Positions 5,145 through 42,188 of a stretch of DNA of 64,000 bases are shown one piece after another. The notes under the pieces were generated by a model. It did no database searches, was not told the origin of the DNA, and worked only from the letters and a program-made list of their open reading frames with translations. Both the position numbers and the translations under genes were made by a program. The stretch comes from Nitrospirota bacterium. Its GTDB lineage: Bacteria; Nitrospirota; Nitrospiria; 2-01-FULL-66-17. Numbering within the stretch: the first letter of the stretch is position 1; each line of letters starts with the position of its first letter. The DNA is taken from the NCBI GenBank assembly GCA_040757335.1, contig JBFLXB010000012.1, forward strand, positions 15,246 through 79,245, read 5' to 3'.

Positions 5145-5163
5145 GAGGGGGCGTCACCCCCTC
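5145..5163. terminator. GC hairpin (GAGGGGG-CGTCA-CCCCCTC) between the convergent ribE and FGE-family genes.
   Basis: A 7-bp perfect stem with a 5-nt loop directly after the ribE stop. Confidence 0.4.
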
Positions 5164-5972
5164 GCCCCGTCAGCATTGCGCGCGCAGCGAAAGCCCACGT
5201 CGTTTAGTCGGCTGTTCGGGTCGGCGCCGAACCGGAAGCTTCCGCGCGCGTTATGTGCCAGGATCGCCTGGAGCGCGTCCGGTGCGAAGTGCCCGACGCC
5301 CGCCCATGACGACCCGCGCAGCACGCGGAGCGATGGGGTTCCGGCCGGCGCCGCGGCGGGGTTGCCGGGATACGGTTCATACCAATCCGCGGTCCACTCC
5401 CACACGTTTCCGACCAGATCGTGAACGCCCATCGGGCTCTGGCCGCTCGGGTAGCTCCCGACCGCGGTGGTTCCGCTTCTCGCGCCGCCAAGGTTGGCGC
5501 GGCTGAGTTCGAACCCGTCGCCCCACGGATACAGCCGGCCCTCGAAGCCGCGGGCGGCCTTTTCCCATTCGGCTTCCGTGGGCAGGCGTTTGCCCGCCCA
5601 CCGGCAATAGGTATCCGCGTCGTCCCACGTGACCGACGTCACGGGGTGCCGAGCCCGGCCCGGTGGGTGGCGCGCACCACGCCAGTCCGGCGGGGGCCGT
5701 CGCTGCGTGGCCTGCACGAACACCTGGTAATCCGCATTGGTGACCTCGAACTTGTCGAGGTAATACCCCGGAATGTTCGCGGTGTGAGCGGGGTGCTCGT
5801 CTTCGAACCACGGCTTGAGGATTCCATACTCCGCGGCCCGATGTTCGGTGTCCACCTGATCCGTCCCCATGACGAACGTCCCGCCGGGGATGTGGACCAT
5901 GCTGGGTGGAGTTGGGGTGCAGGCGATCGCGATGAACACCGAGAGGGCGAGGGGGAGAGTCACTTCGCGCAT
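5154..5972 (-). CDS. FGE-sulfatase (formylglycine-generating enzyme) family lipoprotein. It lacks the catalytic Cys pair.
   Basis: Start at the MREVTLPLALSVFIAIAC lipobox. Motifs WDDADTYCRWAGKRLPTEAEWEKAARG, ...LRGSSWA and ...GFRCA are present. There is no CxxxxC before RFG. The ORF-track N-terminal extension overlaps the upstream gene, so the true start was placed at 5972. Confidence 0.75.
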   Translation of the reverse strand: MREVTLPLALSVFIAIACTPTPPSMVHIPGGTFVMGTDQVDTEHRAAEYGILKPWFEDEHPAHTANIPGYYLDKFEVTNADYQVFVQATQRRPPPDWRGARHPPGRARHPVTSVTWDDADTYCRWAGKRLPTEAEWEKAARGFEGRLYPWGDGFELSRANLGGARSGTTAVGSYPSGQSPMGVHDLVGNVWEWTADWYEPYPGNPAAAPAGTPSLRVLRGSSWAGVGHFAPDALQAILAHNARGSFRFGADPNSRLNDVGFRCARNADGARG

Positions 5973-6982
5973 CGGAATCCGAATCCCTTGTTCTTGATCT
6001 CGGGCGCGAACCGGCTGCGGTTGTAGGCCGGGGAGCTGAGGCCGCACCCGTAGGACAGACAGTCGTACCACGACCCGCCGCGGAGCACTTTGTTCTTCGT
6101 GCCGTAGTGGACGTTCGGGAATTGATTGCCGGGATACGGTTGGTACCAGTCGGCCACCCACTCATACACGTTCCCGGCCATGTCTTCCACGCCTTCGGGG
6201 GTCCGGCCCTGGGGGAAGGAGCCCACCGGCAGGGTGTCGCCCGCGACGTGTTTGGTGAGCCAGTATTGCGGCGTGTTGGCCTTGAGCGGGGCGAATTCGT
6301 CGCCCCAAGGAAAGCGTCGTCCGTCGCCGCTGCGCGCGGCGCGTTCCCACTCGGCCTCGGTGGGCAGCCGCTTGCCGGCCCAGCGGCAGAACGCGTCGGC
6401 ATCGTGCCAATTCACGTACACCACCGGGTGATCGGCTTTGCCCTCGGGGAAGCGCCCCTCGATCCAGTGAAACGGGGGATCGCGACGGGTCGCGCGTACG
6501 AATGCCTCGTACATGGCGTTGGTCGTCTCGTACGTGTCGATCCGGAACGTCTTGACCTGCACCCGATGCTCGGGCCGCTCGTCTTCGTCGCCGGGCCCGT
6601 CATCGCCGCGCCCGTTGTTCCCCATGGTGAACTCGCCGCCGGGAATCGTGATCATGGATTGCTTGATCGGGGACGGCGTCGATGCGTCCGACCCTGTTGC
6701 CGCCACCCGTGCGAGCACCGGTTCGATGGTGACGCCTGGCGAACCGAACAGATGACATTCGGCGCAGGCGGGGTCGGTGGTTGGCTGGAGGGTGGGAATG
6801 CGCGCTCCCACGTGACAGCGGCCGCAGACCGTGTGCGTCGGGGGAGGGAGGGTGGGCGTCAGCGAGGGCGGATTCGAGGCCGGGTCAGCGGCGCTGGCGG
6901 CGCCCCACGCCGCCATGGGGACGCACGCCGCTACGAGCCAGCGCAAACCACGCCGGAACAGCCGAAAATGCACGCCAGCCAT
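5960..6982 (-). CDS. Diheme cytochrome c - FGE-sulfatase family fusion protein, secreted.
   Basis: Signal peptide. Two CxxCH motifs (CGRCH, CAECH). An FGE domain follows (WHDADAFCRWAGKRLPTEAEWERAAR, LRGGSWYDCLSYGC, GFRCAK) and retains a CxxxxC pair. It lies 7 nt upstream of the previous FGE-family gene. Confidence 0.75.
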   Translation of the reverse strand: MAGVHFRLFRRGLRWLVAACVPMAAWGAASAADPASNPPSLTPTLPPPTHTVCGRCHVGARIPTLQPTTDPACAECHLFGSPGVTIEPVLARVAATGSDASTPSPIKQSMITIPGGEFTMGNNGRGDDGPGDEDERPEHRVQVKTFRIDTYETTNAMYEAFVRATRRDPPFHWIEGRFPEGKADHPVVYVNWHDADAFCRWAGKRLPTEAEWERAARSGDGRRFPWGDEFAPLKANTPQYWLTKHVAGDTLPVGSFPQGRTPEGVEDMAGNVYEWVADWYQPYPGNQFPNVHYGTKNKVLRGGSWYDCLSYGCGLSSPAYNRSRFAPEIKNKGFGFRCAK

Positions 6983-7033: not shown

Positions 7034-7450
7034 TTATTGGCTTTGGAACCGAATGATCGTGATCAGGGAACTCCATGTTCTCCCGGTGGGCTGGCCGTCG
7101 TCGTCCACTTGAGAAACGCCGTCCGGAGGAGCCGTCACCTGGATCATGGCTCCGTCCTTCGCCGTGATGGTGTAGGTATGCGTGGGCTCCATGAACGACG
7201 CCGCAGTGTTGAGGTGCTTTTCATAGAACCCCACGATGTCCTTCGCGGAGTCGTCGGAATAGTACTGGTACTGATACAGGTGTGTTTCGCCCGAGGCATC
7301 GGCCTTGTCGTCGAGCCGGTGAACTTTCCAACCCGGGTAGGACGGCACGCCGAGCGTGGTCGGTTTGGCGACCGGTTTCGAGGCCGCGAGTCCGGTGGCG
7401 GCGTTGAGCACGATTCCGGTTATCGCGATCACCAGAGCCATTCGTTTCAT
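7034..7450 (-). CDS. Small secreted protein of unknown function.
   Basis: MKRMALVIAITGIVLNAATGLAAS signal peptide. Otherwise uncharacterised. Confidence 0.5.
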   Translation of the reverse strand: MKRMALVIAITGIVLNAATGLAASKPVAKPTTLGVPSYPGWKVHRLDDKADASGETHLYQYQYYSDDSAKDIVGFYEKHLNTAASFMEPTHTYTITAKDGAMIQVTAPPDGVSQVDDDGQPTGRTWSSLITIIRFQSQ

Positions 7451-13110: not shown

Positions 13111-14568
13111 TTACCCGAACCCGTACTCTTGCCACCGCCGGGTGACGCGCTCGACGATATCGGGATCCATGACGATCGGTTTGCCCCATTCGCGCGAGGT
13201 CTCGGGCGGGATCTTGGTGGTGGCGTCGATCCCCATTTTGGCGCCGAGCTCGGGAAGCGGCGAGGCGAAGTCCAGGTAGTCGATGGGCGTGTGGTCAATG
13301 ATCGTGACGTCGCGCCGCGGGTCCACGTTGGTCGAAATGGCCCAGATCACGTCTTCCCACTTGCGGACGTTGATGTTGGGATCGACCACGATCACGAACT
13401 TCACGTACAGGAACTGCTTCAAGAATCCCCACAGCCCCATCATCACGCGTTTGGCGTGGCCGGGGAATTCCTTTTTCATGGAGATGACGGCCACGCGATA
13501 CGACAGCGCTTCCATGGGCAGGTGGAAGTCCACGATCTCGGAGAACGTGCGCTTGATCATGGGCAGGAACACGCGGTTGAGCGCGAGCGCCACCACCGCG
13601 TCCTCGCGCGGCGGCCGGCCGGTCACCGTGGTCATGTAAATCGGATTCTGCCGGTGCGTGATGGCGGTCACCCGAAACACCGGAAACGACTCCACCGGGT
13701 TGTAATAGCCGGTGTGGTCGCCGTGCGGGCCCTCGTCCGCCATATCGCCGGGCGAGACCTCGCCCTCGATCACGATCTCCGCTGACGCCGGCACTTCCAG
13801 GTCGATGGTTTTGCAGCGCACCAGCTCGATGTTCTTCTTGCGCAACAGGCCCGCAAAGTGAAACTCGCCGATCTCCTCGGGCACCGGGGTGACCGCGGCA
13901 ATGGTGGTGCCGGGGTCGCACCCCAGCACCGCCGCCACCGGCATGGTCTTGCCAAGTTTCATCCACTCGCGCCAATGGTGCGCGCCGCCATGGTGTTTGA
14001 GCCAGCGCATGGCCGTGCGGTTCTTACCCAACACCTGCAGACGATAAATGCCGGCGTTGTACTTCCCCCCGTGCGGCGACTTGGTGATGACCAACGGCCA
14101 GTTGATCTGCGGGCCGCCGTCATCAGGCCAACAGAACATGATGGGCAGGATGCCTAAGTCAACCTGTTCGCCCGTGAGCACGACCTCCTGGCAGGCTGCG
14201 CGGCTCACGGTCTTGGGCGCCAGGTGCAGGATGCGGCCGTAGAAGGGCAGGTGCTTGATCGCGTCCACGAAGCCTTTGGGCGGCTCCGGGTGTTGCAGGA
14301 ACGCCAGGAACTTGCCGATCTCTTCCAGCCCGGCTTCATCGGTCTCCAGCCCCATGGCCACGCGTTTGACCGTGCCGAAGAGGTTGGCCAGCAGCGGGAT
14401 CGACGAGCCTTTGACGCGCTCGAACAGGACCGCCGGGCCCTCGCGCGCCAGCAAGCGATTGAGAATCTCCGTGACTTCGAGCCGCGGGTCCACCTCGGTC
14501 TTCACCCGGACCAGTTCCCCGGCTTTCTCCAGGGCGTCCAGAAATTCGCGCAGGTCAACGTACGGCAC
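13111..14568 (-). CDS. ubiD: UbiD-family (prFMN-dependent) aromatic acid decarboxylase, 485 aa.
   Basis: MPYVDLREFLDALEKAGELVRVK... N-terminus and overall length are diagnostic of UbiD/VdcC. Confidence 0.85.
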   Translation of the reverse strand: MPYVDLREFLDALEKAGELVRVKTEVDPRLEVTEILNRLLAREGPAVLFERVKGSSIPLLANLFGTVKRVAMGLETDEAGLEEIGKFLAFLQHPEPPKGFVDAIKHLPFYGRILHLAPKTVSRAACQEVVLTGEQVDLGILPIMFCWPDDGGPQINWPLVITKSPHGGKYNAGIYRLQVLGKNRTAMRWLKHHGGAHHWREWMKLGKTMPVAAVLGCDPGTTIAAVTPVPEEIGEFHFAGLLRKKNIELVRCKTIDLEVPASAEIVIEGEVSPGDMADEGPHGDHTGYYNPVESFPVFRVTAITHRQNPIYMTTVTGRPPREDAVVALALNRVFLPMIKRTFSEIVDFHLPMEALSYRVAVISMKKEFPGHAKRVMMGLWGFLKQFLYVKFVIVVDPNINVRKWEDVIWAISTNVDPRRDVTIIDHTPIDYLDFASPLPELGAKMGIDATTKIPPETSREWGKPIVMDPDIVERVTRRWQEYGFG

Positions 14569-14576
14569 GGCAGCTC

Positions 14577-15500
14577 CTATCTCATCCCGAGATCAACGAT
14601 GATGCCCAGTAACACGACGAGACCGATCCACGCATGCGACCGAAACAACGCGAATATCGCGGCGTGGTCGATCTCCCGCCGCAGACGCCAGGTCTGATAC
14701 GCGAGCACCGCGGCGACCGCCGCGATGGTGGCGTGGTACACGCCTCCCATTGGGACCCGCATGCCCAGCACGACCAGGCCGGCCACTGAGAACGCGAAGA
14801 GGACGCCCACTCCGGCCCACGCGTATGGTCCAAACAGAATCGCGGACGAGCGCACACCGATCTTCAGATCGTCGTCGCGATCCAACATCGCGTAGATGGT
14901 GTCGTACCCCGCGGCCCAGCAGACCGTGGCGAGGAAGATCACCACCGCGGGTGCTCCCACCTCGTTGCGAACCGCGGCCCAGGCGAGCAACGCGCCCCAG
15001 CCGAACGCGGCGCCCATCACCGCCTGGGGCATCGCGATCACGCGCTTCATCAGCGGATAGACCGCGGCGAGCACGAAACCGACCACGCTGAGGGCGATGG
15101 CCAACGGGTTCAAGGTCAGCGCCAGCAGCAGCGCGACGAACGACAGCGCCGCGCCCACCGCGAGCGCCTCGCCCGGAGTCAGGCGTCCCGAGGCCAGGGG
15201 GCGCTCTTTGGTCCGTTGCACGCGGCCGTCGATGTGTCGGTCCGCAAGGTCGTTCAGCACGCATCCCGCGCTGCGCATCACGAACGCGCCCATGACGAAC
15301 ACCGCCAGCAGTCGCCACGAGGGCCGGCCGTTGGAGGCGATCACCAGCGACCAGAGCGCGGGCGCCATGAGCAGGAGCGTGCCGTACTGTTTGGGGAGGC
15401 GGATCAGATCCGACACCGCGGCCAGCTTGGTTCGCCACGTGGAGCCGGTCGGCTTGCCGCGGAGATCGAGGCCGTGTGGCCTGGCAACGTCGGTGGCCAC
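14577..15500 (-). CDS. ubiA: UbiA-family 4-hydroxybenzoate polyprenyltransferase.
   Basis: NDLADRHIDGRVQRTKERPLASGRL and a second Asp-rich motif, with multiple TM helices. The GTG start at 15500 lies 1 nt after the ubiC-like stop. The ORF-track start at 15647 would overlap ubiC by 145 nt. Confidence 0.8.
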   Translation of the reverse strand: MATDVARPHGLDLRGKPTGSTWRTKLAAVSDLIRLPKQYGTLLLMAPALWSLVIASNGRPSWRLLAVFVMGAFVMRSAGCVLNDLADRHIDGRVQRTKERPLASGRLTPGEALAVGAALSFVALLLALTLNPLAIALSVVGFVLAAVYPLMKRVIAMPQAVMGAAFGWGALLAWAAVRNEVGAPAVVIFLATVCWAAGYDTIYAMLDRDDDLKIGVRSSAILFGPYAWAGVGVLFAFSVAGLVVLGMRVPMGGVYHATIAAVAAVLAYQTWRLRREIDHAAIFALFRSHAWIGLVVLLGIIVDLGMR

Positions 15501-15501: not shown

Positions 15502-16074
15502 TCAGTCCGCCAGGCGGGGAGAGAGCACCTCCACGATGGAGGCGGTGAGCGTGCCTTCGACCGCGAGCCGATACGCCCGACACCACAACGGGTCCGCGGG
15601 GTCGGCTCCGAACGCTTTGGCCAGATCGGGGTTGTGATGCCGGCCAATGCGGAGGTCGTCGCGGATCACGGCCCGGCTCTTGGTATCGAACAACCGGCCC
15701 AGGGGCTCAATCCCGCGGCGGATTTCAGTCGCCACGTCCGGAGCCAGGGACTCCAGCGGCAAGACCGAGACTGCGTACAGCAACCGCTCGCCGGCGTGGG
15801 TGAGCCAGACGTGGCGAGCCACCGCGGTCTGACGCGCCGACACGCCCAGACGCCGCGCGGTGTCGTCGTCAATGGACTCTTCACCTTGGCGTACGACTTC
15901 GACGCTGACCCGGCCCACCCGCAACGCCTCGAGCGCCGTGGTCATGGAGCCGTCCGAAGTGAGGAGCAGTCGCAGCACCGTGGGGACGTCCAGGGAATCC
16001 GCTTCGGCGAGGAATTCTTCGAGTGTTTTCCAGGCGATGGAGGTCGTGGCGAGTGCGATCACGCGCGGGATCAT
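15502..16074 (-). CDS. ubiC: Chorismate pyruvate-lyase (UbiC/DUF98 family).
   Basis: LLLTSDGSMTTALE, RHVWLTHAGERLLYAVSVLP and PLGRLFDTK align with the E. coli UbiC blocks. It sits immediately upstream of ubiA. Confidence 0.6.
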   Translation of the reverse strand: MIPRVIALATTSIAWKTLEEFLAEADSLDVPTVLRLLLTSDGSMTTALEALRVGRVSVEVVRQGEESIDDDTARRLGVSARQTAVARHVWLTHAGERLLYAVSVLPLESLAPDVATEIRRGIEPLGRLFDTKSRAVIRDDLRIGRHHNPDLAKAFGADPADPLWCRAYRLAVEGTLTASIVEVLSPRLAD

Positions 16075-17949: not shown

Positions 17950-18496
17950 CCAATCGGGAAAGCCAGGTCAAGTAACCCTAAAGGACGAGTATGGTGGTCG
18001 TGCTTCCCTGATCTGGGTATCCGCGGTCGCAGCAAGGGCTCATGACAGGAATTTCGCGCTCGCCTTAGAAAGGAAAGAAACTCATCCTCTTTGGCGAAAT
18101 ATTTCCCCAAACGCTGAGATGACCTGACCCGAACTCTGCGCCAATATATCTGTAGGGCTTTGAAATATAAATCGATTTTTCTACAGTTGGTTCTTCCGGT
18201 AGAGCAGGAACAAGAATTGCTTAAAACGTAACACGTTGCAGTAAGTCTATTTGCGCCGATTGGTCGGCGCCCATCAACGATCGCCCAGGCTGACCGCTTG
18301 CGGGGTGATCAAGGAATGAATGCATGTCGCGCGTTGTGCGAACCGCGCTGCACGTGGGGTTTCATTATTACGGCCGACCGAGCTACGTCTTGGGTCGGCC
18401 GTTGTGTTTTGTGAACAGGGGGGTTGGGCGGTCTTGCGTGTCCATTTGGCCGCGGAAATTCAACGGCCCGGTGTCATCCGAGGAGGAGTGCGGGTC

Positions 18497-21400
18497 ATGA
18501 AGCGTAAGGTCTTACTTTGGGCAGGGATGCTCTCCGTTGCTCTGGCGGGAGTCGGATTCGCCGCGACCGGGAACGAGCAGATCGCGCCGAACCAGCCCGA
18601 GTACACGCTGGGCGACACCGCGGTCATCTACGGCACCGGGTTCGAGCCGGGCAGCTCGGTGATTGTCGAGGTGATCCGGGCGGACGGGAGCATCGTCACT
18701 GGAGCTGGAACCGAGACCCCTGGCAGCGACACTGTCACCGCGAACTTGACCGGCGCGTTTACGTACCACTACCTGATCGACGGCGGGCCGGTGTCGGCCT
18801 ACAACGGGATCCTGACCGTCAACGCGAAGGATGCCAGCACGTTGGCCGTGCTCGCGACGACGACGTTTCTCGATGGCACGCAATTCTTGCTTCAAGGGTG
18901 CTCCAAGGATCGGGGCGATTGCACGCTCGACAGCCCCGCGACCGGGTGGGCCGGTGGGGCGACGCCCATGACGGGGTGGACGTCGGGACATCTGGAGGGC
19001 TGGTTTGACGGTGACGACGTGCCCTATCGCCTCAGAATCGGGTTGCGCGACGAGGGGAGCGCCGGACCCAAGTATTTCACGACCATCCACGACAACATGA
19101 GAAATGGGATTCTTGGCATCACCAGCGCTGGCAACTTCTACGTCGGGTACGGGCCGGTGGGTTCCCTGGAGGGGACGCTGACCAAGACCTGCCGGTTGCA
19201 GGCGTCGGGGAGCGCCGTCCCGACCGTTTCGGATCCCTGCATCGTCACCGGCCCCTCGTACAGCGGCGGTGACGGGAGCGGGCCGACACCCAGGCAGATT
19301 GAGTACGCGTGGGCGGTGCTGTTCGATCCAGACGAGGATGGAGGCAGCGATAAGAAATGGGCGGTGTACTGGACCGGCCACCTGGACGCAGGAGCGCACA
19401 ACTGGCCCGGGTCGTCGCTCCACACCAGCACCACCGCGTCGGGCAGCCAGGACGTGCCCATCGACGACATCGAGGACGATGCTCCGTCGGGCGCGAACCT
19501 GTCGATCACAAAGACCGATACGCCGGACCCCGCGTATGTCGGGGAGAACCTGATCTACACGCTCACGGTGACCAACAACGGCCCCAGCTCCGCCACCAAC
19601 GTCAAGGTGACGGACACGCTCCCGACCACGGTGACCTACGTGTCCGCGACCGCGAGCCCGGGGACGCCTGACACCTGTTCAATGATGGGCGGCACGGTGA
19701 CGTGCAACCTAGGCACCCTCGCCAACGCAGCGACCGCCACGGTGACGATCGTGGTGACGCCGATGTCGGCCGGCACACTGTGCAACAGCGCGATCGTGTC
19801 CAGCCACACGTCGGATCCGACACCCGGCAATAACAACGCCAAGGCAACGACCACGGTGTATCCTTCGGCGAACCTGTCGATCGTCAAAAACGACTCGCCG
19901 GATCCGGCTTACGTCGGCGAGAATCTGACGTACACGATGACGGTGTACAACGCCGGACCCAATACCGCCACCAACGTGTCGGTGACCGATACGTTGCCCG
20001 CCGGTGTGGATCTGGTCACGTTCTACGTCAGCCAAGGGACCGGCTGCACGCAAGGGACCGGGACCGTCACGTGCAACCTGGGGACCCTGACGAAGTGGTC
20101 AAGCGCAACGGTAACGATCGTCGTGAAACCCACCACGGCCGGAACGCTGACCAACACGGCCGCCGTGTCGAGCACCACGCATGATCCGAGCTCAGGCAAC
20201 AACACCTCGACGGCGACGACCACGGTCTATCCGTCGGCTAATTTGTCCATCACCAAGACCGGGCCCAGTACGGGGATCGTCGGACAGTCCATTAGCTACA
20301 CGATCGTGGTGTCGAACGCGGGGCCGAGTGCGGCCACGGGGGTGAGTGTGACCGATAACCTGCCGGCGGGTGTGACGTATGGGTCGGCGTCGTGGACGGG
20401 TGCATCAACGGGCACGTGTACTTTCGCTAGTCCGACCGTGACGTGCAGCATCGGGACGTTGGCGAGCGGGGCGTCCGTGACGATAACAATCACCGTGACG
20501 CCGACGGTGAACGGGACGCTCAACAACAGCGCCACCGTGTCATCGCCGACCTGGGACCCCACGCCGGGCGACCACACCACGCCGCCGGTCACGACCACGG
20601 TCACCTCGTCGGCGGACTTGGCGATCACGAAGAGCGGCCCCGGTTCCGCGACCGTGGGTGCGCCGTTTAGTTACACGATCGGGGTGTCGAACGCTGGGCC
20701 GAGTGCCGCCACGGGGGTGAGTGTGACGGACAGTCTGCCGACGGGCTTGACGTACGGCTCAGCAACGTGGACCGGCGCGTCGTCGGGGACCTGTACGTTT
20801 TCCAGCCCGACCGTGACGTGCAGCATCGGGACGTTGGCGAGCGGGGCGTCCGTGACGATAACAATCACCGTGACGCCGACAGTGAACGGGACGCTCAACA
20901 ACAGCGCCACCGTGTCGTCGCCCACGCCGGACCCCAACTCGGGCAACAACACTACGCCTCCGGTATCAACCACCGTCACTTCCTCGGCGGACCTGACGAT
21001 CTCGAAGTTCGGACCCAGTACCGCGACCGTGGGGCAGCCGATGGCGTACACGATCGGGGTGTCGAATGCGGGGCCGAGTCCGGCCACCGGCGTGACGGTG
21101 ACGGACACCCTGCCAGCGGGCGTGACGTACGGGTCGGCAACGTGGACCGGCGCATCGTCGGGGACGTGCGCGTTTGCCAATCCGACGGTGACGTGCAGCA
21201 TCGGCACGTTGGCGAGCGGGGCGTCGGTGACGATCACGATCACGGTGACGCCCACGGCCACGGGAACGCTCAACAACAGTGCCACCGTGTCGTCGCCCAC
21301 ATCGGATCCCACGCCGGGTGACCACACCACGCCGACGGTGCAAACGACGGTGAGTGGAACCCCGTCGACCGGGCCGCTGGGAGGCAACGCCTTCAGCAAC

Positions 21401-21532
21401 GCCGGCGGGGCCATGAGTTCGACAAACTACCAACTCATTACCGGGGTGGCGGGCCAGGGCATCGGCCAGGGCAGCCAGAGCACGAATTATGGGCTGGATG
21501 CCGGCTATGCGCCTGGGGTAACCGGGGGTTAG
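18497..21532 (+). CDS. Large secreted protein with six or more DUF11 (conserved repeat domain) repeats and a distinctive Gly/Gln-rich C-terminal tail.
   Basis: GGAGGA RBS and ATG at 18497. Signal peptide MKRKVLLWAGMLSVALAGVGFA. Repeats of about 115 aa: ANLSI(T/V)K(T/N)D.PDPAYVGENL.YT.TV.N.GP..ATNV.VTDTLP...TC.LGTL. The C-terminus is ...SSTNYQLITGVAGQGIGQGSQSTNYGLDAGYAPGVTGG. Confidence 0.85.
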   Translation: MKRKVLLWAGMLSVALAGVGFAATGNEQIAPNQPEYTLGDTAVIYGTGFEPGSSVIVEVIRADGSIVTGAGTETPGSDTVTANLTGAFTYHYLIDGGPVSAYNGILTVNAKDASTLAVLATTTFLDGTQFLLQGCSKDRGDCTLDSPATGWAGGATPMTGWTSGHLEGWFDGDDVPYRLRIGLRDEGSAGPKYFTTIHDNMRNGILGITSAGNFYVGYGPVGSLEGTLTKTCRLQASGSAVPTVSDPCIVTGPSYSGGDGSGPTPRQIEYAWAVLFDPDEDGGSDKKWAVYWTGHLDAGAHNWPGSSLHTSTTASGSQDVPIDDIEDDAPSGANLSITKTDTPDPAYVGENLIYTLTVTNNGPSSATNVKVTDTLPTTVTYVSATASPGTPDTCSMMGGTVTCNLGTLANAATATVTIVVTPMSAGTLCNSAIVSSHTSDPTPGNNNAKATTTVYPSANLSIVKNDSPDPAYVGENLTYTMTVYNAGPNTATNVSVTDTLPAGVDLVTFYVSQGTGCTQGTGTVTCNLGTLTKWSSATVTIVVKPTTAGTLTNTAAVSSTTHDPSSGNNTSTATTTVYPSANLSITKTGPSTGIVGQSISYTIVVSNAGPSAATGVSVTDNLPAGVTYGSASWTGASTGTCTFASPTVTCSIGTLASGASVTITITVTPTVNGTLNNSATVSSPTWDPTPGDHTTPPVTTTVTSSADLAITKSGPGSATVGAPFSYTIGVSNAGPSAATGVSVTDSLPTGLTYGSATWTGASSGTCTFSSPTVTCSIGTLASGASVTITITVTPTVNGTLNNSATVSSPTPDPNSGNNTTPPVSTTVTSSADLTISKFGPSTATVGQPMAYTIGVSNAGPSPATGVTVTDTLPAGVTYGSATWTGASSGTCAFANPTVTCSIGTLASGASVTITITVTPTATGTLNNSATVSSPTSDPTPGDHTTPTVQTTVSGTPSTGPLGGNAFSNAGGAMSSTNYQLITGVAGQGIGQGSQSTNYGLDAGYAPGVTGG

Positions 21533-22973: not shown

Positions 22974-25238
22974 GTGAAAATCGCTCTTCGGGCCGGCTTG
23001 ATCGCGATGGTCATGGCGATCGTCATTGCTTCCGGCGACGTGGCGTGGTCCGTGGTTCCGCCGGGCGATTCCGCCGGACCGACACCGGTCGTGACCGCGG
23101 ATCGCGCGCCTGCCGAAGTCGTCGTTCGATTCAAACAAGGCACCACCTCAGGGGACAAAGAGCGAGCCCACATCGAGACTGACACCGAGGTCCTCTCGGA
23201 AATCCCTCGCCTGCGAATGGAGCGGCTGAGGTCAAAGCGGGGTGAGTCGGTGGACGCGCTGCTGCGATCCTTCGCCCAGAACCCTAACGTCGAGTACGTC
23301 GAGCCCAACTATATCGTGACGGCGTCAGCCGTGCCGAACGATCCGCGCTTCTCGGACCTGTGGGGCCTTCACAATATCGGTCAAACCGGCGGCATGGTCG
23401 ATGCGGATATCGACGCCCCCGAGGCGTGGGACCTCCAGACCGGAAGCAGCGGTCTCGTTGTGGGGGTGATCGACAGCGGGATCGACTACAACCACCCGGA
23501 TCTTACCGCGAATGTCTGGACCAACCCGGGAGAGGTCGCGGGCAACGGAATTGACGACGATCACAACGGGTACGTTGACGACATCCGTGGGTGGGACTTC
23601 GTCAATAACGACAACAACCCATTGGACGATTACGGGCATGGCACGCACGTCTCGGGCACGATCGGGGCGGTCGGGAACAACGGCGTGGGAGTGGTTGGCG
23701 TGGCCTGGCAGCTCAAGATCTTGCCCGTGAAGTTTCTGGACGCCACGGGGACGGGCACGTCGTTCGACGCCGCCTCCGCCATCGTCTACGCCGCGGACAT
23801 GGGCGCGAAGGTGCTGAACGCCAGTTGGGGGTGCTCCAATTGCTTTCCGCAAGTTGTGGAAAACGCGATTGCTTACGCCGATCAACAGGGGGTGGTGTTC
23901 GTGGCGTCGGCGGGCAACGAGGCCACGAACAACGATGTGATCCCGTCCCATCCCTGCGGATCCAGCCAGCCGAACGTGCTCTGCGTGGCGGCCACCACTG
24001 CTCAGGACGGTTTGGCGTCGTTCTCGAACTACGGCGCAGCCACGGTGGACTTGGGGGCGCCGGGGGTCAGTATTCTGTCCACGGTGCCTAATGGCGGATG
24101 TGCGTTCTGCGCGCCGTCACGGTATCTGTACGCCAGCGGCACCTCCATGGCCGCGCCTCACGTCGCGGGGGCGGCCGCCCTCGTGTTCAGCGAGAGCCCC
24201 ACGCTTTCGGTCGCTGAGGTCAAGCAGGCGATACTGGATACCGTCGATCCCGTGCCCGCCTTGGCCGGGGTGACGATGACTGGAGGAAGGCTCAACGCGG
24301 CAGCGGCCCTGGCGCAGGTCGGCCCTGTCGACCTGACCATGACCGATGTAACGCCGAACGCCGCGTCGGTCAATGCGGGGAGCACGCTATCGGTCTCTGA
24401 TACGACTTTCAACCAAGGGACCAGTGCAGCGGGGAGTTTCACGATCGCGTATCACCTGTCCACCAACACGAGTTCCGGCGATGGCGACGATATCGCGATC
24501 GCCACCACGCGGGCAGTGGGCTCCCTGGGCGGCGGTGCGTCGAACGTGGCCTCCACCGCGCTGGCGATCTCAGGGGGAACGCCTGCCGGGAACTATTACG
24601 TGTGCGCGATCGCTGATGCTGCGTCCGCCGTCATCGAAACGAACGAGGCCAACAACGCCCTCTGCAGTCCATCGACGGTCACGGTTCCCCCGCCGGATCT
24701 GATCGTGACCTCGGTCTTCACCGGGTCATCCGTGTTGGCGCCTGGAGACGCGTTCAATGTCTCTGACAGCGTTGCCAATCAAGGTGGATCGGCGGCTGGA
24801 GCCTTTCTGGTCGACTTTCATCTGTCGTCGGATCCGGCCTATGGCGGCACGGACGACATCACGTTGAGCGCCACGCGACCAGTGCCCTCGCTCAGTGCGG
24901 GAGCCACCAGCAGTGGGGCCACCACACAGACGATCCCGTTGACGGCACCCCTCGGCAATTACTACGTGTGCGCCAAGGCGGACAGCGGGAACGCAGTCTC
25001 GGAGGGCACGGCCGAGTCCAACAACACCCTGTGCAGCGCCCCCACGATCAGAGTGGCAATCCCGTCCACGAATCTGGGCGGAAGCGGAAGCAGCAGTACG
25101 GGCGGTGGGTCCATCGCCTCGTCGTCGTACCGGATGGAGCCGGGCGTGGTGGGCCAGGGCGTGGCGGGTTCAGGAGGGCAGAGTGCGGGCTACCAGCTTG
25201 AATCCGGATTTGGAGCCCAGATCGTTGGGCAGCAGTAA
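22974..25238 (+). CDS. Secreted subtilisin-like S8 serine protease with an I9 propeptide and two CARDB domains. Its C-terminal tail is shared with the DUF11 protein.
   Basis: GTG start with signal peptide. Triad motifs VIDSGIDYNHPDL, HGTHVSGTIG and GTSMAAPHVAGAAAL. Two roughly 115-aa CARDB repeats end in ...NYYVC(A)(I/K)AD...E.NN.LCS. The C-terminus is ...SSSYRMEPGVVGQGVAGSGGQSAGYQLESGFGAQIVGQQ. Confidence 0.85.
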   Translation: MKIALRAGLIAMVMAIVIASGDVAWSVVPPGDSAGPTPVVTADRAPAEVVVRFKQGTTSGDKERAHIETDTEVLSEIPRLRMERLRSKRGESVDALLRSFAQNPNVEYVEPNYIVTASAVPNDPRFSDLWGLHNIGQTGGMVDADIDAPEAWDLQTGSSGLVVGVIDSGIDYNHPDLTANVWTNPGEVAGNGIDDDHNGYVDDIRGWDFVNNDNNPLDDYGHGTHVSGTIGAVGNNGVGVVGVAWQLKILPVKFLDATGTGTSFDAASAIVYAADMGAKVLNASWGCSNCFPQVVENAIAYADQQGVVFVASAGNEATNNDVIPSHPCGSSQPNVLCVAATTAQDGLASFSNYGAATVDLGAPGVSILSTVPNGGCAFCAPSRYLYASGTSMAAPHVAGAAALVFSESPTLSVAEVKQAILDTVDPVPALAGVTMTGGRLNAAAALAQVGPVDLTMTDVTPNAASVNAGSTLSVSDTTFNQGTSAAGSFTIAYHLSTNTSSGDGDDIAIATTRAVGSLGGGASNVASTALAISGGTPAGNYYVCAIADAASAVIETNEANNALCSPSTVTVPPPDLIVTSVFTGSSVLAPGDAFNVSDSVANQGGSAAGAFLVDFHLSSDPAYGGTDDITLSATRPVPSLSAGATSSGATTQTIPLTAPLGNYYVCAKADSGNAVSEGTAESNNTLCSAPTIRVAIPSTNLGGSGSSSTGGGSIASSSYRMEPGVVGQGVAGSGGQSAGYQLESGFGAQIVGQQ

Positions 25239-25525: not shown

Positions 25526-26641
25526 GTGCAAGGGATGATGGGGTTCCTGAGATTTACCCTTGCGATGTTTGTGGTAACCGCGCATCTGACTGAAGGTGTG
25601 CGGTTCTTTTCACATTGGGGGGTGTTTGCAGTCTTCGGTTTTTACCTTATCTCCGGCTATCTGATGACCCTGATCCTTCATGAGACATATTCGTTTAGAT
25701 TTTCGTCGTTTGTGTTGAACAGATTCTTGCGCTTATTCCCGATCTACTATCTTGTGGCAGTTGTTTCGGCATATCTTATCCTGTCTGTACCAGCGTCTGC
25801 TGACTTTCTCTCGGTATGGGAAGTTAAATATCGAGCATCAGACTTTTTGGGGAATGGACTAATCTTCCCTTTTGAGTTCTACGATGCGTCTTTCCGCATA
25901 GTGCCGTCCACGTGGTCTATAGCCGTCGAGCTAATCAACTACTTTCTGCTTTGGTTGGTTGTTGCACGAAGTCGCTCCTTAGCACTTTCTACCGTATTGC
26001 TCACGATAACCTACCACGTCGTTACCCTTGCAGTGGGGATGGACTGGAGTAGCCGATACCGCCCTTTTTATGCAGCGCTTCTCCCATTTTCTCTGGGGGC
26101 ATGCATTTATTTCTGCCGTGATCAATTAGCGCGCTTGTCGATCTCTACTATTCGATATGTAGCCTTCGGTTCATTCCTGGTTTGGGTCGCGAATCTGATT
26201 CTTTGTGGTGTTGTGGCAGGGATGGGGGGGCCTCACTTTGACACCTTCTACTACTGGAACCTGGTCTCCTTGCTAGCTCTTATCTCTTGTCTAACCACTT
26301 CATCCCTGAAGTCTCTGTCCCCAAGGTGGGGAAAGATTTTTGGCGACCTGGCGTACCCGGCCTTTCTCACCCACTGGATCATTGGATTCGCCGTAAGTCT
26401 TTTCGTGCTAGGGGGGCAGAGGAGGGGTCTAGCGCTACTGGCTCTGTCTGTATTTCCGATACTTGCGGTGTCGTTTGCCCTAGCGTGGTCAGCTGACCGC
26501 TGGCTCGAGCCGTTGCGGGACAAGGTGCGAAGAAAAGTGGCTCTGCCCGCTACGGTCAGTTCAGGGCAAAGCAAATTTGAGAGAGTCTTCAGGAAGTCCT
26601 TTGGGTGGCTTAGGGTGTCCGGCGTGGACAATTCAGATTGA
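25526..26641 (+). CDS. Acyltransferase family 3 (OatA/OafA-like) integral membrane O-acyltransferase. Low-GC gene.
   Basis: N-terminal ...FVVTAHL..GV.FFSHWGVFAVFGFYLISGYLM motif (AT3 family) and about 10 TM helices. GC is roughly 48% against about 65% in the flanks. Confidence 0.8.
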   Translation: MQGMMGFLRFTLAMFVVTAHLTEGVRFFSHWGVFAVFGFYLISGYLMTLILHETYSFRFSSFVLNRFLRLFPIYYLVAVVSAYLILSVPASADFLSVWEVKYRASDFLGNGLIFPFEFYDASFRIVPSTWSIAVELINYFLLWLVVARSRSLALSTVLLTITYHVVTLAVGMDWSSRYRPFYAALLPFSLGACIYFCRDQLARLSISTIRYVAFGSFLVWVANLILCGVVAGMGGPHFDTFYYWNLVSLLALISCLTTSSLKSLSPRWGKIFGDLAYPAFLTHWIIGFAVSLFVLGGQRRGLALLALSVFPILAVSFALAWSADRWLEPLRDKVRRKVALPATVSSGQSKFERVFRKSFGWLRVSGVDNSD

Positions 26642-26652
26642 CGGATCGGCGG

Positions 26653-26760
26653 AATAGTGGTACATCGTCACCTGTTCATATTATGAACAGGATTTGATTG
26701 CGGGCTGCAGGTAATCCTCGGCCCTTTTTCTGATTCTTGGTGTTCAGACTATGAACGCCT
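26653..26760. repeat. Roughly 110-bp intergenic repeat, copy A2, containing the palindrome CTGTTCATATTATGAACAG (26672..26690).
   Basis: See copy A1. It is directly upstream of the regulator gene. Confidence 0.7.
26672..26690. promoter_or_regulatory. Second copy of the 19-bp palindromic operator-like site, upstream of the Rex-like regulator gene.
   Basis: CTGTTCAT-ATT-ATGAACAG lies 87 nt upstream of the regulator start. Confidence 0.45.
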
Positions 26761-26776
26761 CGTAGTCATCGGGAAT

Positions 26777-27364
26777 GTGATGAGAAAAGACGACAGCTTT
26801 CATCTCTTCCGCATCCTGGACGAACTCTCCAAGAACGGGGAGGTGACCCAGCGGGGGTTGAGCCGGCGGCTCGGGGTGGCCTTGGGATTGACCAATTTGT
26901 ACGTGAGGCGGCTTGGGAAGAAGGGCCTGATTAAAGTGGTCAACCTCAAAGCGAACCGCCTCCGGTACGAACTGACGCCCAGCGGCATCGCGCAGAAGAC
27001 CGCGATGGCGTTTCAATACGTTCAGGATTCCTACGTGTTCTACCGCGAGGCGCGACGGACGCTGACCGCAACATTCGAGGCGATGAAGAGGACGGGGGTA
27101 CGGTCGGTGGTGCTGTATGGAGCAGGGGACCTCGCCGAGATCGCGCTGCTTTCGCTGCAGGAGGCTGATCTCGACCTGACCGGCGTGGTGGGCCTAAAAC
27201 ACCAGGGGCAGTCGCTGTGCGGGAAGCCGGTGGCCGACCCCGCGTCGCTGGCGTCGATTGAATACGACCGGGTAGTGGTGGTAGAGCGCGAGCGAGAAGA
27301 CGCGATGAAATGTCTGGCGGATCTGGGAGTGGACGGTTCGAAAATCGTTTGCGTGGGAGTGTGA
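26777..27364 (+). CDS. Winged-helix transcriptional regulator with a C-terminal Rossmann-like domain (Rex-like architecture).
   Basis: N-terminal wHTH (FHLFRILDELSKNGEVTQRGLSRRLGVALGLTNLYVRRL) followed by VRSVVLYGAGDLAEIALLSL (GxGxxA dinucleotide-fold start). About 195 aa. Confidence 0.55.
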   Translation: MMRKDDSFHLFRILDELSKNGEVTQRGLSRRLGVALGLTNLYVRRLGKKGLIKVVNLKANRLRYELTPSGIAQKTAMAFQYVQDSYVFYREARRTLTATFEAMKRTGVRSVVLYGAGDLAEIALLSLQEADLDLTGVVGLKHQGQSLCGKPVADPASLASIEYDRVVVVEREREDAMKCLADLGVDGSKIVCVGV

Positions 27365-27374
27365 GCAGCAAGCC

Positions 27375-28172
27375 ATGAAATCCCAGGTGATGGGTGTCTG
27401 GCACTATCGCCACTTTATTCTCTCCTCCATCCGGAACGAGTTTCGCTCGCGGTTTATCCGCAGCCGCCTTGGCGGGCTGTGGATGATCATTCATCCCCTG
27501 GCCCAAGCCGCCATTTTCGCGCTGGTGCTGAGCCAAGTGATGGCCGCGAGGCTACCGGGTATGGCCGGAGACAAGTTTGCTTACGCCGTCTATCTTCTGT
27601 CCGGAATACTCGCCTGGTCGTTGTTTTCAGAGGTGATCGGCCGTTGCGTCACCCTATTCATCGACAATGGCAATCTGCTCAAGAAGATCGCGTTTCCCCG
27701 AATCAGCCTGCCGTTGATCGTGGCCGGCTCCGCGCTCGTCAACAACCTCCTCTTGTTTCTTGCCATCATCGTCGTCTTCGGTGTGCTGGGCCACGTACCC
27801 GGCATCCAGATCGCCTGGGTTCCGCTATTAATGCTGCTCACCTTGGCGCTCGGGCTTGGGGTCGGGATACTGCTCGGCGTGTTCAACGTATTTATCCGCG
27901 ATGTGGGGCAGGTGGTGCCGGTAGCGCTGCAACTGGGCTTTTGGTTCACCCCCATCATCTATCCTCCGAATGTTGTTCCGGAAGCCCTGCGCCCGATAAT
28001 GAACCTGAACCCCATGGCTATGGTGGTCCAGAGTTTCCACAAGGCCCTTCTCTTCAACACGTCTCCCGAGTTCGTTAGTCTGGGGGTGGTTCTTCTGGTT
28101 ACTTTTGCGTTGTTGGGTATGGCGCTCAGCGTTTTTCGGCGTGCCGGTGCCGAAATGGCGGATGTGTTGTGA
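27375..28172 (+). CDS. wzm: ABC-2 type polysaccharide export permease.
   Basis: About 265 aa with six TM helices. The N-terminal ...RNEFRSRFIRSRLGGLWMIIHPL matches the ABC2_membrane signature. It precedes the ATPase with a 4-nt overlap. Confidence 0.85.
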   Translation: MKSQVMGVWHYRHFILSSIRNEFRSRFIRSRLGGLWMIIHPLAQAAIFALVLSQVMAARLPGMAGDKFAYAVYLLSGILAWSLFSEVIGRCVTLFIDNGNLLKKIAFPRISLPLIVAGSALVNNLLLFLAIIVVFGVLGHVPGIQIAWVPLLMLLTLALGLGVGILLGVFNVFIRDVGQVVPVALQLGFWFTPIIYPPNVVPEALRPIMNLNPMAMVVQSFHKALLFNTSPEFVSLGVVLLVTFALLGMALSVFRRAGAEMADVL

Positions 28173-29464
28173 GCGCTCCGATGATCGAGGTCGAGAACAT
28201 CGGCAAATCGTTCCGGACGTATTCGAGCCAATGGCACCGCTTCCGAGGGTGGTTCGGAGCGGGTCCTCGGCGATACGCTGATCACTGGGTGTTGCGAAAC
28301 GTCTCATTTGCAGTCGGGGCGAGCGAATCCATCGGTATCCTCGGCCGTAACGGTGCGGGGAAGAGCACCCTCCTCAAGCTGATCGTCGGGACCCTCGCAC
28401 CCTCTGAAGGCCACGTGAAGGTCGGGGGCCGCATCAGCGCGATCCTCGAATTGGGGATGGGCTTCAACGCCGAATTCACCGCCCGCCAAAATGTCCTGTA
28501 TGGATGTGGACTGTTGGGCTACAACCGGGACGAAATCGAGTCGGCGATGCCGGAAATCGAACGCTTCGCCGATATCGGTGAGTATTTTGATCAACCCCTA
28601 CGCACCTCCTCCAGCGGCATGCAGATGCGGGTAGCGTTCGCGGCCGCTACCGCGTTTCGCCCGGACGTGCTGATCGTGGACGAAGCTCTTTCGGTGGGCG
28701 ATCTCTTTTTTCAAGCAAAGTGTTTCGAGCGGATCGGCGAGATGAAGGCGTCTGGTACCACGCTGCTCTATGTGTCACATGCGGCGGGAGATATTGCGAA
28801 ACATTGCGAGCGTGCCCTGTTCATCAAGGAGGGCAGGCTCCTCATGGATGGGCCGGCACGTGAGGTCTCAAATGTGTACCTGGACGATCTCTTCGGAAAG
28901 AGCGCGCCCCACCAAAGAACCGTACGATCAGCTCAGGCTGCTAACGAAACACGGTTTGCCGCAGATAACGTCGAGCGCTTCCACACGCGGCCTTTTTACC
29001 GAAAAGACGAGCATCGGTGGGGTGTTGGCGGGGGACGTGTTCTCGATTTCTTGGTCGAGGTCGATGGCGAAGCATTTCCTTCCGCTATCTATTCACATCA
29101 AAGGATGCGAGTCTCGTTTAAGGTTCATTCTGAGCAGGAACTCGCGAAGCCCATATACGGGTTGCTGATCAAGACGATCGAGGGGATCTACGTCTACGGT
29201 ACCAACTCCAAATTTGCGCAACCAGGAGTGACCCCGTCGTCCGTACCTGCGGGCGATAACCGGGTGGTGTCGTTCGAATTTCCCATGATGTTGAACACTG
29301 GGGCTTACCTGATTTCCCTGGGAGTCTCGAATGAGGATGACAGCGGGCAGGTCGTGCCCATCGATCGGCGGTATGACTCTGTCCTGATAACGGTGACGAA
29401 CGGGCAGCAGGGATCGGGGCTTGTCGATCTTGCAGCCCAATTTGAATGCCACAAGGCCGCATGA
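28169..29464 (+). CDS. wzt: Polysaccharide export ABC ATPase with a C-terminal O-antigen terminus-binding (Wzt_C-like) domain.
   Basis: Walker A GRNGAGKST, the LSSGMQMRVAFAAA signature, and Walker B LIVDEALSVGD. About 180 extra C-terminal residues form a beta-rich domain as in E. coli O9a Wzt. Confidence 0.85.
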   Translation: MSAPMIEVENIGKSFRTYSSQWHRFRGWFGAGPRRYADHWVLRNVSFAVGASESIGILGRNGAGKSTLLKLIVGTLAPSEGHVKVGGRISAILELGMGFNAEFTARQNVLYGCGLLGYNRDEIESAMPEIERFADIGEYFDQPLRTSSSGMQMRVAFAAATAFRPDVLIVDEALSVGDLFFQAKCFERIGEMKASGTTLLYVSHAAGDIAKHCERALFIKEGRLLMDGPAREVSNVYLDDLFGKSAPHQRTVRSAQAANETRFAADNVERFHTRPFYRKDEHRWGVGGGRVLDFLVEVDGEAFPSAIYSHQRMRVSFKVHSEQELAKPIYGLLIKTIEGIYVYGTNSKFAQPGVTPSSVPAGDNRVVSFEFPMMLNTGAYLISLGVSNEDDSGQVVPIDRRYDSVLITVTNGQQGSGLVDLAAQFECHKAA

Positions 29465-35945: not shown

Positions 35946-36150
35946 AGGCCGCGATTGGTATGTTAGGACGTCTTATGGCTTCGTCGTTATAAAGAGTCAT
36001 TAAGCTCTCTCTTTCGGCGCTTTGGGTGGTGGTGCGTCACCCAGTGACGCAGGTCAGTGACTCGGGCAGACCTGGTGGACCACTAAGACGAATGCCGATT
36101 GGAAATACACCGCGGCATCATTGGGCGAGGCGATAGGAAAGGCGTGAGTC

Positions 36151-36981
36151 ATGTCTGAATGGCGTAATGACGTATTGAAGACCAGAGTTGACCATGTATT
36201 CGAAAAGATTAAGACGATTCCAAGTGATCTCAGATCGGGGCGATGCTTAGACATTGGGTGCGGAATGGGTGGTGGTGTCATTGCCGCATTGAAGCACGGC
36301 GCTTCACTGTCCGTAGGTATCGACCGGAATCTGAATGAGTTTCAACATGATATGAATTTTGCGAGGTTTGGAGAGGCCTGTAATTTCTTTCAGGTCAATG
36401 CCGACCAAGCAGTGATGATCCAGGCCGACGTCTTTAAGTGTGATGTCTTTCGTGGCTATTTTGACTACTGTATCCTTGTCGACACAATTGAGCATGTCCC
36501 AAATCAGCGTGAATTTATTCGCTACGCATACAGATCCCTCAAGCCGGGAGGGGTCCTGCTAGTAGATACGTGTCCTTTGTACTATAGCCCGGTCGGACAT
36601 CACCTATGGCAATGGTTCCCAAAGGAATCGGATCCGTGGGCGCATTTACGCTCAGACTTCGATGAGCGTTTGAAAGCGAAAGGAGTTGACCAATGGACAA
36701 TCGAGCGTTATCGGCAACTAAACCGGGTGACATACTCAGAAGTGATAGACATGGTCTCAGAAGCTGGGTTTACTGTTGTGAGGACAAATCAGCAAGCGCC
36801 GCGTAGTGAAATGGTGAGTCTTTATGAGAAATATGGCGCTTTGATTGATGTCGAAATCCCTGTTCCGAAGGACTGTCTATTCCAGGACTGGATAGAGGTT
36901 GTGGCGAGGAAAGACGGGTGGTTAAAGCGTCTAACAAAAAGGCTCGGCCGTCGGGTGAGGAGGATAGCGGGCCGGTCTTGA
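36151..36981 (+). CDS. Class I SAM-dependent methyltransferase.
   Basis: Motif I CLDIGCGMGGGVIAAL and post-I/II motifs (...LKPGGVLLVDT). Confidence 0.75.
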   Translation: MSEWRNDVLKTRVDHVFEKIKTIPSDLRSGRCLDIGCGMGGGVIAALKHGASLSVGIDRNLNEFQHDMNFARFGEACNFFQVNADQAVMIQADVFKCDVFRGYFDYCILVDTIEHVPNQREFIRYAYRSLKPGGVLLVDTCPLYYSPVGHHLWQWFPKESDPWAHLRSDFDERLKAKGVDQWTIERYRQLNRVTYSEVIDMVSEAGFTVVRTNQQAPRSEMVSLYEKYGALIDVEIPVPKDCLFQDWIEVVARKDGWLKRLTKRLGRRVRRIAGRS

Positions 36982-37010
36982 AAGGTTAAGGAGGAATCGG
37001 GACAAGTGTT

Positions 37011-40881
<3,871 letters not shown>

Positions 40882-40909
40882 CGGATCGGTCCCCTGTTCC
40901 GGCAGAAGA

Positions 40910-42073: not shown

Positions 42074-42188
42074 GCCGACCCTCGGTTCTCGGTGAATTGA
42101 GAAATCCCGTTTGGGATGCTACGCTCAAGGCGTTCGTTGGGCGCTGAGTCTTGTTCGGTTGCGTCGGTGAGTATGGAGGTCGTGGACG

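Follow-up and report, generated by a model that had tools for sequence, protein, structure and literature searches.

The window analysed here is a 64,000-nucleotide (nt) stretch of a Nitrospirota genome (contig JBFLXB010000012.1, positions 15,246 to 79,245), and its minus strand carries two overlapping genes whose products belong to the formylglycine-generating enzyme (FGE)-sulfatase family (Pfam PF03781). The upstream gene (5960..6982) encodes P2, a protein of 340 residues with orthologues in other Nitrospirota, in which a signal peptide and two CxxCH motifs precede an FGE-family domain retaining a pair of cysteines. The downstream gene (5154..5972) encodes P1, a lipoprotein-type paralogue of 272 residues that lacks the pair. 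A first-pass annotation made from the sequence had described P2 as an exported fusion of a dihaem-motif segment to an FGE domain with its Cys pair intact, and P1 as a lipoprotein with the same domain and no C-x4-C; both descriptions, with their coordinates, are upheld here.

Architecture and conservation of the P2/P1 pair

The N-terminus of P2 reads as a Sec signal peptide (residues 1-31; 6890..6982), with an h-region followed by ...AWGAASA/AD, in which ASA/AD near residue 31 is the predicted cleavage site. The first haem-c motif, CGRCH, occupies residues 53-57 (6812..6826) and the second, CAECH, residues 73-77 (6752..6766), and a variable linker joins the latter to the FGE-sulfatase domain (residues 108-340; 5963..6661), which is recognised by PF03781 with an E value of 7.7e-58 and by Foldseek. 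The Cys pair, C308-LSYG-C313 (CLSYGC, residues 308-313; 6044..6061), lies near the C-terminus of P2 in the sequence RGGSWYDCLSYGC, within an invariant block, RGGSWYDCLSYGCGLS. The N-terminus of P1, MREVTLPLALSVFIAIAC, fits the lipoprotein pattern, with a predicted signal peptide and lipobox (MREVTLPLALSVFIAIA-C18; 5919..5972), and PF03781 covers its residues 22-265 (E 1.4e-58). No C-x4-C was found in P1 by motif scan, and the position of the Cys-pair loop is taken by G227-H228 (5289..5294), part of a GH[YF] motif.

The two genes had been placed 7 nt apart, but they actually overlap by 13 nt (5960..5972; ATGCGCGAAGTGA), the P1 ATG at 5972..5970 lying upstream of the P2 termination codon TGA at 5962..5960. 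An alternative P1 start, GTG at 5963, would give a 4-nt GTGA overlap with P2. This arrangement of the reading frames makes translational coupling of P2 and P1 likely. A consensus scan places a terminator-like hairpin across the stop codon of P1, with a T-rich tail beyond it (5145..5163, minus strand), and the first gene downstream of P1 encodes riboflavin synthase and is convergent.

The 120 best P2 homologues are 51-89% identical to it and belong to assemblies of Nitrospiria, Manganitrophaceae and other Nitrospirota; 49 of them were aligned. The motif C[LM]xYGC is present in all 120, and both CxxCH motifs are present in every full-length protein among them, the exceptions being N-terminally shortened gene calls, with a spacing of 18-26 residues (mostly 19-20) between the two. 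In the alignment C53, C56 and H57 of the first haem motif, C73, C76 and H77 of the second, and the block around the Cys pair are all invariant, and every orthologue has a hydrophobic N-terminus. The first-pass annotation had staked its reading of P2 on CxxCH conservation in orthologues, and the motifs have proved invariant. Because the CxxCH and C[LM]xYGC motifs are present in every full-length homologue, their occurrence is evidently not due to chance.

Loci were also scanned using one genome per species, giving 84 (L001-L084) among the matches listed. The two haem motifs and the pattern GGSWYDC-x4-C occur together in exactly the 23 closest of these; two of the 23 are cut upstream, by a run of N or by a contig end, and their haem motifs are missing or incomplete. 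Neither the haem motifs nor GGSWYDC-x4-C is found in the 61 more distant of the 84 listed loci, which are from other phyla. Invariance of the motifs in full-length orthologues holds down to about 41% identity. Since co-occurrence is limited to the 23 closest loci, the dihaem-motif/FGE fusion defines a family with sharp limits, which makes up a minute fraction of a superfamily numbering about 223,000 clusters (222,974 in a profile search of 1.84 billion representatives, the top of which is occupied by giant proteins with multiple FGE repeats).

The haem segment is very short, with its two motifs in about 25 residues, and it resembles multihaem cytochromes of the c3/c7 type weakly. P2 scores 13.2 bits (E 0.08) against Cytochrome_C7, for which the cut-off is 24.8, and a relative of P2 scores 23.5 bits (E 7.9e-5) against Cytochrom_c3_2, just below the cut-off of 25; no curated cytochrome model reaches threshold for P2 or for the relatives scanned. 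Two family-specific residues in the FGE domain of P2, M268 and H292, are candidate distal ligands only. Given a segment that is short, weakly c3/c7-like and devoid of a conserved distal ligand, we infer that haem binding by P2 is likely. It is very improbable that the CxxCH motifs instead form a four-cysteine metal knuckle holding zinc or iron, such that P2 would not be a cytochrome. The crowding of the motifs, the want of a conserved distal ligand and the sub-threshold cytochrome scores would all suit a knuckle, but all orthologues have the histidine that follows each CxxC, an export signal is present, the c3/c7-type similarity is repeated, if weak, and conserved cytochrome c genes adjoin the locus in related genomes, as described below.

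The pairing of the two proteins is obligate, in that at least one lipoprotein FGE gene adjoins the cytochrome-FGE gene (as we refer to P2 and its orthologues) in every genome that has the latter. Lipoboxes of the form ...[AGS]C were read in partner genes of 12 loci, and a neighbour-joining tree separates the cytochrome-FGE clade from the lipoprotein-FGE clade. In the partners an invariant Gly-His takes the place of the Cys-pair loop, and GH[YF] is at least 90% conserved among 23 P1-type sequences.

Relationship to solved FGE-fold proteins

When P2 is compared with solved structures by phmmer, true FGEs rank first (E 1e-34 to 1e-29; Streptomyces coelicolor, 9.6e-35), and C308 and C313 align with the Cys pair 'ChdsyC' of S. 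coelicolor (6MUJ/2Q17), T. curvata (6S07) and human (2AFT) FGE, the cysteines that ligate Cu(I) in the solved enzymes, as had been proposed for CLSYGC at first pass. P2 shares with FGE (6MUJ, 6S07 and human 1Y1E) the fold, the position of the C-x4-C, an RGGS motif, the structural disulfide cysteines and the glutamate of the YExxN motif in the acidic pocket (human E130, P2 E152). It differs from FGE in having a signal peptide and two haem-c motifs, and also within the domain: segments common to the three solved FGEs (NIWQGxFP...EDG...TAPV and CxRYRxAARxxNTPDSS) are replaced in P2 (by ...NTPQYWL...GDTLPVGSF and CGLSSPAYNRSRFAPE), human Trp299 beside the site corresponds to an invariant Tyr273, and there is one additional residue before the first cysteine. 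Scores against the NCBIfam models of related enzymes are far below their cut-offs (in bits, with the cut-off second: EgtB 112.8/360, SenA 111.5/420, GldK 80.5/350, PvdO 58.8/500). Because of the replaced segments, the Trp to Tyr change, the extra residue and these sub-cut-off scores, P2 is not an orthodox FGE.

An AlphaFold2 model of P2 built with the 49 orthologues has a mean predicted local distance difference test score (pLDDT) of 69.8, falling below 60 in the haem segment and below 50 in the Cys-pair loop (residues 294-323); the signal peptide is modelled as a helix (residues 4-28). A Foldseek search with this model confirmed the fold, with the top matches being ToxD (7SPQ), CalU17, OvsA and FGEs at a probability of 1.00. 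Among solved structures P1 is closest to ToxD (7SPQ, E 7.5e-37) and human SUMF2/pFGE (1Y4J, E 3.3e-32). ToxD (toxoflavin), CalU17 (calicheamicin), PvdO (pyoverdine) and the EgtB/OvoA/OvsA/SenA enzymes are best or near-best solved relatives of both proteins, and they show that the FGE fold serves oxidative steps on aromatic or heteroaromatic small molecules. None of these relatives has a cytochrome fusion, whereas P2 has one and also keeps its Cys pair. PvdO is periplasmic. Like P1, SUMF2 is an FGE paralogue devoid of the catalytic cysteines that exists beside an active-type paralogue, but P1 is a bacterial lipoprotein with a conserved GH[YF] motif of its own, and the loss of the cysteines in the two was probably independent.

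Two rival explanations bear on these relationships. The first is that P2 is a true protein-modifying FGE that turns a cysteine of an exported protein into formylglycine in the periplasm, with the haem segment supplying the two electrons for which copper FGEs depend on a reductant and P1 serving as a non-catalytic, SUMF2-like partner. The rank of bona fide FGEs among the solved matches, the exact alignment of the Cys pair, the retention of the acidic-pocket glutamate as E152 and the resemblance of P1 to SUMF2 all speak for it, but we consider it quite unlikely. Segments shared by FGEs are replaced and Trp299 is exchanged for an invariant tyrosine; no sulfatase signature (PS00523) occurs in the six-frame translation of the window or in L001-L023, nor is there a sulfatase domain among the Pfam-scanned open reading frames of the window, which agrees with the first-pass remark that no sulfatase gene is nearby. 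The P2 gene is linked to quinone genes and not to sulfatases, and a protein-directed enzyme leaves the tightness of this linkage and a prenyltransferase fusion, both described in the next section, unexplained.

The second is that the pair, like NirV or PvdO, helps to mature a periplasmic copper enzyme or to handle its copper; kinship with these families and an association with nirK or copper proteins had been raised at first pass. P2 belongs to the same superfamily, is exported and gives a weak PvdO score, but the NCBIfam results above do not bear out membership, and no copper nitrite reductase (nirK) or multicopper-oxidase domain was found in any annotated neighbourhood; we regard this explanation as remote in the extreme.

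Linkage to methyl-plastoquinone genes

Aerobic Nitrospirota make methyl-plastoquinone (mPQ), a high-potential quinone (Elling et al. 2025, PMC11874023), on the basis of which it has been argued that the ubiquinone, plastoquinone and mPQ pathways share an ancient origin. In Escherichia coli, ubi mutants are complemented by their Ca. M. noduliformans counterparts MpqC, MpqA and MpqD/X (PMC11874023), whereas the hydroxylation of the ring at C1, the only hydroxylation of the mPQ pathway, has no assigned enzyme (PMC11874023) and, according to a paper of late 2025, still no candidate (PMC12998194); some cyanobacteria present the same hydroxylase gap. The accessions tested were WP_168061789 (UbiD), WP_168061790 (UbiA) and WP_168061792 (UbiC) (supplement to the bioRxiv version of PMC11874023), a series that skips one number, at the position of an FGE gene. 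The tested M. noduliformans MpqD and MpqA fragments match the UbiD and UbiA genes flanking the L001 FGE genes at 97.7% and 98.5% identity, and the window genes at 13111..14568 and 14577..15437 at 78% and 57%. The words 'FGE' and 'sulfatase' do not occur in the main text of PMC11874023, and we found no paper linking the cytochrome-FGE family to quinone synthesis or to haem motifs.

The linkage of the cytochrome-FGE gene to mpqC, mpqA and mpqD is the main new result of this analysis, in which window proteins were compared with all loci by tblastn. At every locus that has an orthologue of at least 50% identity and enough flanking sequence the pair is clustered with UbiA, with the exception of the window's own lineage. 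The cytochrome-FGE and UbiA genes form a same-strand cluster in L001-L014, L016, L017, L088-L093 and L097, and a UbiC-like gene and UbiD are also present in most of these. Ca. Manganitrophus and a related assembly share the gene order chorismate-lyase-like, FGE, UbiA, UbiD, cytochrome-FGE, FGE; elsewhere it is UbiA-UbiD-FGE-cytochrome-FGE-FGE, or, in clusters without UbiD, UbiC-UbiA-FGE-cytochrome-FGE-FGE, UbiC-UbiA-cytochrome-FGE-FGE or UbiA-cytochrome-FGE-FGE. With at least five different gene orders, the linkage has outlasted repeated rearrangement. Start and stop codons of UbiD and cytochrome-FGE overlap by 1-4 nt in L001, L003 and L092, and UbiA and cytochrome-FGE overlap by 4 nt in L088.

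A closer association is seen in the metagenomic locus L097, where a single protein, P0144, is an in-frame UbiA::dihaem::FGE fusion. P0144 lacks the signal peptide of about 35 residues found in its separate relatives; the gene has no hidden frameshift, and the signal peptide is in none of its other frames. In the solved UbiA structures, proteins of this family span the membrane with nine helices and have their C-terminus on the outside. On that nine-helix, C-out topology the haem-FGE part of P0144, which follows the last membrane helix, would lie in the periplasm, and the last UbiA helix would take over the export function. A crude hydropathy scan of the window UbiA gives ten peaks, two of them overlapping, and thus does not settle the number of helices.

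In the window itself three minus-strand genes about 6 kb upstream of the pair, and on the same strand, correspond to mpqC-A-D. They encode a chorismate pyruvate-lyase-like, MpqC-like protein (15502..16074; Pfam Rv2949c-like, E 2.3e-19), whose homologues head the cluster in related loci, a UbiA-family 4-hydroxybenzoate polyprenyltransferase orthologous to MpqA (14577..15437; Pfam UbiA, E 9e-62), and a UbiD-family decarboxylase orthologous to MpqD (13111..14568; Pfam UbiD_N, UbiD and UbiC-terminal domains). Immediately upstream of P2, at a distance of 51 nt, a minus-strand gene (7034..7450) encodes a secreted protein of 138 residues with no Pfam match and is possibly co-transcribed with P2. It has the same position in the closest relatives L085-L087 only, and its product has no homologue in loci L001-L084.

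A conserved monohaem class-I cytochrome c of about 145 residues (motif GKGTCFTCHG), sometimes duplicated, accompanies the cluster. Its gene is divergent from the UbiA cluster in L012, L088/L089, L090/L091, L093 and L097, as is often the case in lineages without UbiD in the cluster, and is directly upstream of cytochrome-FGE in L018-L021; no homologue is present within the 64-kb window. Several clusters also adjoin genes for cytochrome b, a bd-like oxidase and cytochrome c. The first-pass annotation had suggested electron delivery in the periplasm, and the monohaem cytochrome c genes beside the cluster in several lineages make periplasmic electron exchange more plausible; its general reasoning was sound, and its interpretation is partly supported.

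More distant members of the family keep different company. In L018-L021 a conserved block contains the cytochrome-FGE/FGE pair, a SurA-like isomerase, the monohaem cytochrome c, TPR and NHL proteins and a multihaem cytochrome, together with a Ser/Thr/Asn-rich protein of about 650 residues that ends in an aromatic residue, appears outer-membrane barrel-like and has no Pfam match. An S-x-P-x-R motif in this beta-barrel-like neighbour was considered and is taken as chance, being present in only two of three sequences.

Two further associations were noted around the quinone genes. In L094-L096 (P0300 and P0297, from Nitrospirales metagenome-assembled genomes; 12 member sequences) the C-terminus of the UbiA prenyltransferase carries a fused ApbE flavin-transferase domain, the gene spanning 8001-9821 and encoding 606 residues. 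ApbE acts outside the cytoplasm, and the fusion is a second, independent hint of an exported redox protein tied to MpqA, in Nitrospirota without the cytochrome-FGE cluster. An odd companion in L090, L093 and L097 is a gene for an Ogg-HhH (8-oxoguanine glycosylase-like) protein. Alongside the quinone cluster it stands next to the genes for the divergent cytochrome c and a third FGE, between these two in L097 and beyond the FGE gene in L090 and L093.

Elsewhere in the window, 25526..47601 is given over to a large polysaccharide cluster that includes genes for ABC-2 and Wzt transporters and for a 1444-residue multi-glycosyltransferase/methyltransferase, three GDP-mannose-dehydratase-family genes and several GT4 genes; between 34 and 40 kb its GC content is low (0.50-0.55) and the GC skew strong. 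A secreted protein of 1070 residues (18320..21532) is composed of repeated modules of about 100 residues ('SANLSITKT...NAGPS...'), and a protein of 754 residues (22974..25238) has a subtilisin-like region. The two have similar Gly/Ser-rich tails ('...S.NY.L..G...GQG...Y.L..G...'), possibly a shared sorting or anchoring signal. The region 54001..56000 has an extreme AT skew of -0.35 at a GC content of 0.67, and its long open reading frames (such as 54871..56769, minus strand, 632 residues) have no Pfam match.

A proposed role in quinone head-group synthesis

A plausible scenario is that P2 and P1 form a periplasm-facing redox module, wired to cytochrome c, that performs the missing oxidative step of mPQ head-group synthesis. 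We favour this reading tentatively, at somewhat short of an even chance. The sequences show the make-up of the domains, the conservation of the motifs, the obligate pairing and the linkage of the genes; haem and copper loading, location, substrate and chemistry are inferred. An oxidase or hydroxylase acting in the periplasm is suggested by the export signals, haem motifs, Cys pair, obligate partner, cytochrome c neighbours, linkage and MpqA fusion, and the presence of the small-molecule oxidative enzymes ToxD, CalU17 and OvsA/EgtB among the closest solved folds argues in the same direction. P2 would be exported, bearing two c-type haems on its short N-terminal segment and a copper-type two-cysteine site in its FGE-fold domain, and P1 would be its lipid-anchored FGE-fold partner with Gly-His in place of that site. 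The module belongs genetically to the mPQ pathway of MpqC (chorismate lyase), MpqA (prenyltransferase) and MpqD (decarboxylase), and its substrate would be the membrane-bound prenylated ring produced by MpqA and MpqD. Most probably it would hydroxylate C1 of the prenylated phenol ring, and in lineages without UbiD in the cluster decarboxylation and hydroxylation might be combined. Catalysis would occur on the outside of the membrane, with the haems exchanging electrons with a periplasmic cytochrome c; the direction of electron flow through the haems and the source of the oxygen could be either way under this proposal. That the pair has some role in head-group synthesis is a tentative conclusion, at about the same strength, and its assignment as the C1 hydroxylase is held somewhat more tentatively still.

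The step proposed here, C1 hydroxylation of a prenylphenol, is that of the quinone C1 hydroxylases UbiH and PlqH (class A flavin monooxygenases) and the O2-independent UbiU/UbiV. These are cytoplasmic flavoproteins or Fe-S proteins, whereas the P2/P1 module is exported, has haem and Cys-pair motifs and is unrelated to them in fold and cofactors. Oxidation or hydroxylation of phenolic or aromatic groups in the periplasm, with c-type haem as relay or catalyst, is carried out by the flavocytochrome c p-cresol methylhydroxylase and by the dihaem protein MauG. These serve as a working analogy only, having no sequence or fold relationship to the module.

Several observations weigh against a role in mPQ synthesis. 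The support for it is drawn from sequence and genomic context, and no Cys2-copper FGE site is known to hydroxylate an aromatic ring. Enzymes of the other known steps (UbiD/X and the S-adenosylmethionine-dependent methyltransferases) are cytoplasmic, and the module would need access to the intermediate from the outside of the membrane. Apart from the CxxCH histidines, the haem segment of the 49 aligned orthologues contains no invariant His or Met that could act as a distal ligand, the pLDDT at the Cys-pair loop of the model is too low for copper geometry to be read, and P0144 is a singleton, a targeted search having found no further UbiA::FGE fusion. No locus from Nitrospira or Leptospirillum, which also make mPQ, is among those listed, and the MpqA fragments of these genera are only 43-60% identical; the module is therefore probably not the universal hydroxylase, with the qualification that absence from the two genera is not proven by this listing.

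The genomic context is also not uniform. In the window the 6 kb or so between the pair and mpqC-A-D is taken up by genes for a GGDEF/EAL protein, a DEAD-box helicase and the 138-residue secreted protein, and the same broken layout is seen in L085-L087 (78% identity); given these unrelated genes, the pair is not co-transcribed with mpqC-A-D and has its own small operon here. In the distant clade L018-L023 (41-47% identity) the pair is present, but no Ubi gene lies closer to it than 10 kb. These arrangements could be accounted for if the pair were a periplasmic respiratory or accessory oxidoreductase, acting on another substrate or on quinol and merely co-regulated with quinone synthesis. The separation of the pair from the mpq genes in the window, its place among cytochromes, a SurA-like chaperone and a beta-barrel-like protein in the distant clade, and the cytochrome b, bd-like oxidase and cytochrome c genes beside several clusters are consistent with such a function, but the frames that overlap UbiA or UbiD in many lineages and the physical fusion to UbiA point to a shared biosynthetic task, and we consider an accessory oxidoreductase unlikely.

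A more specific form of the proposed role in mPQ synthesis is that the dihaem-FGE and its lipoprotein FGE partner or partners constitute a new class of quinone-ring hydroxylase for C1 of mPQ, exported, FGE-folded, wired through c-type haem and using a Cys-pair (copper) site. This remains doubtful, although not fanciful. In clusters without UbiD such an enzyme might replace the decarboxylase too, and if the haems remove electrons, water could be the source of the oxygen atom and the step would then be O2-independent.

The analysis provides a concrete, cloneable set of candidates for the hydroxylase gap in mPQ synthesis, inside a validated gene cluster in which they had gone without discussion. 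Even if the hydroxylase idea is wrong, a conserved FGE fused to a cytochrome c segment and retaining its Cys pair is an architecture for which we found no description. If the idea is right, the FGE fold would acquire a new catalytic role and quinone synthesis a step on the periplasmic side, with a bearing on the O2 requirement of early high-potential quinones.

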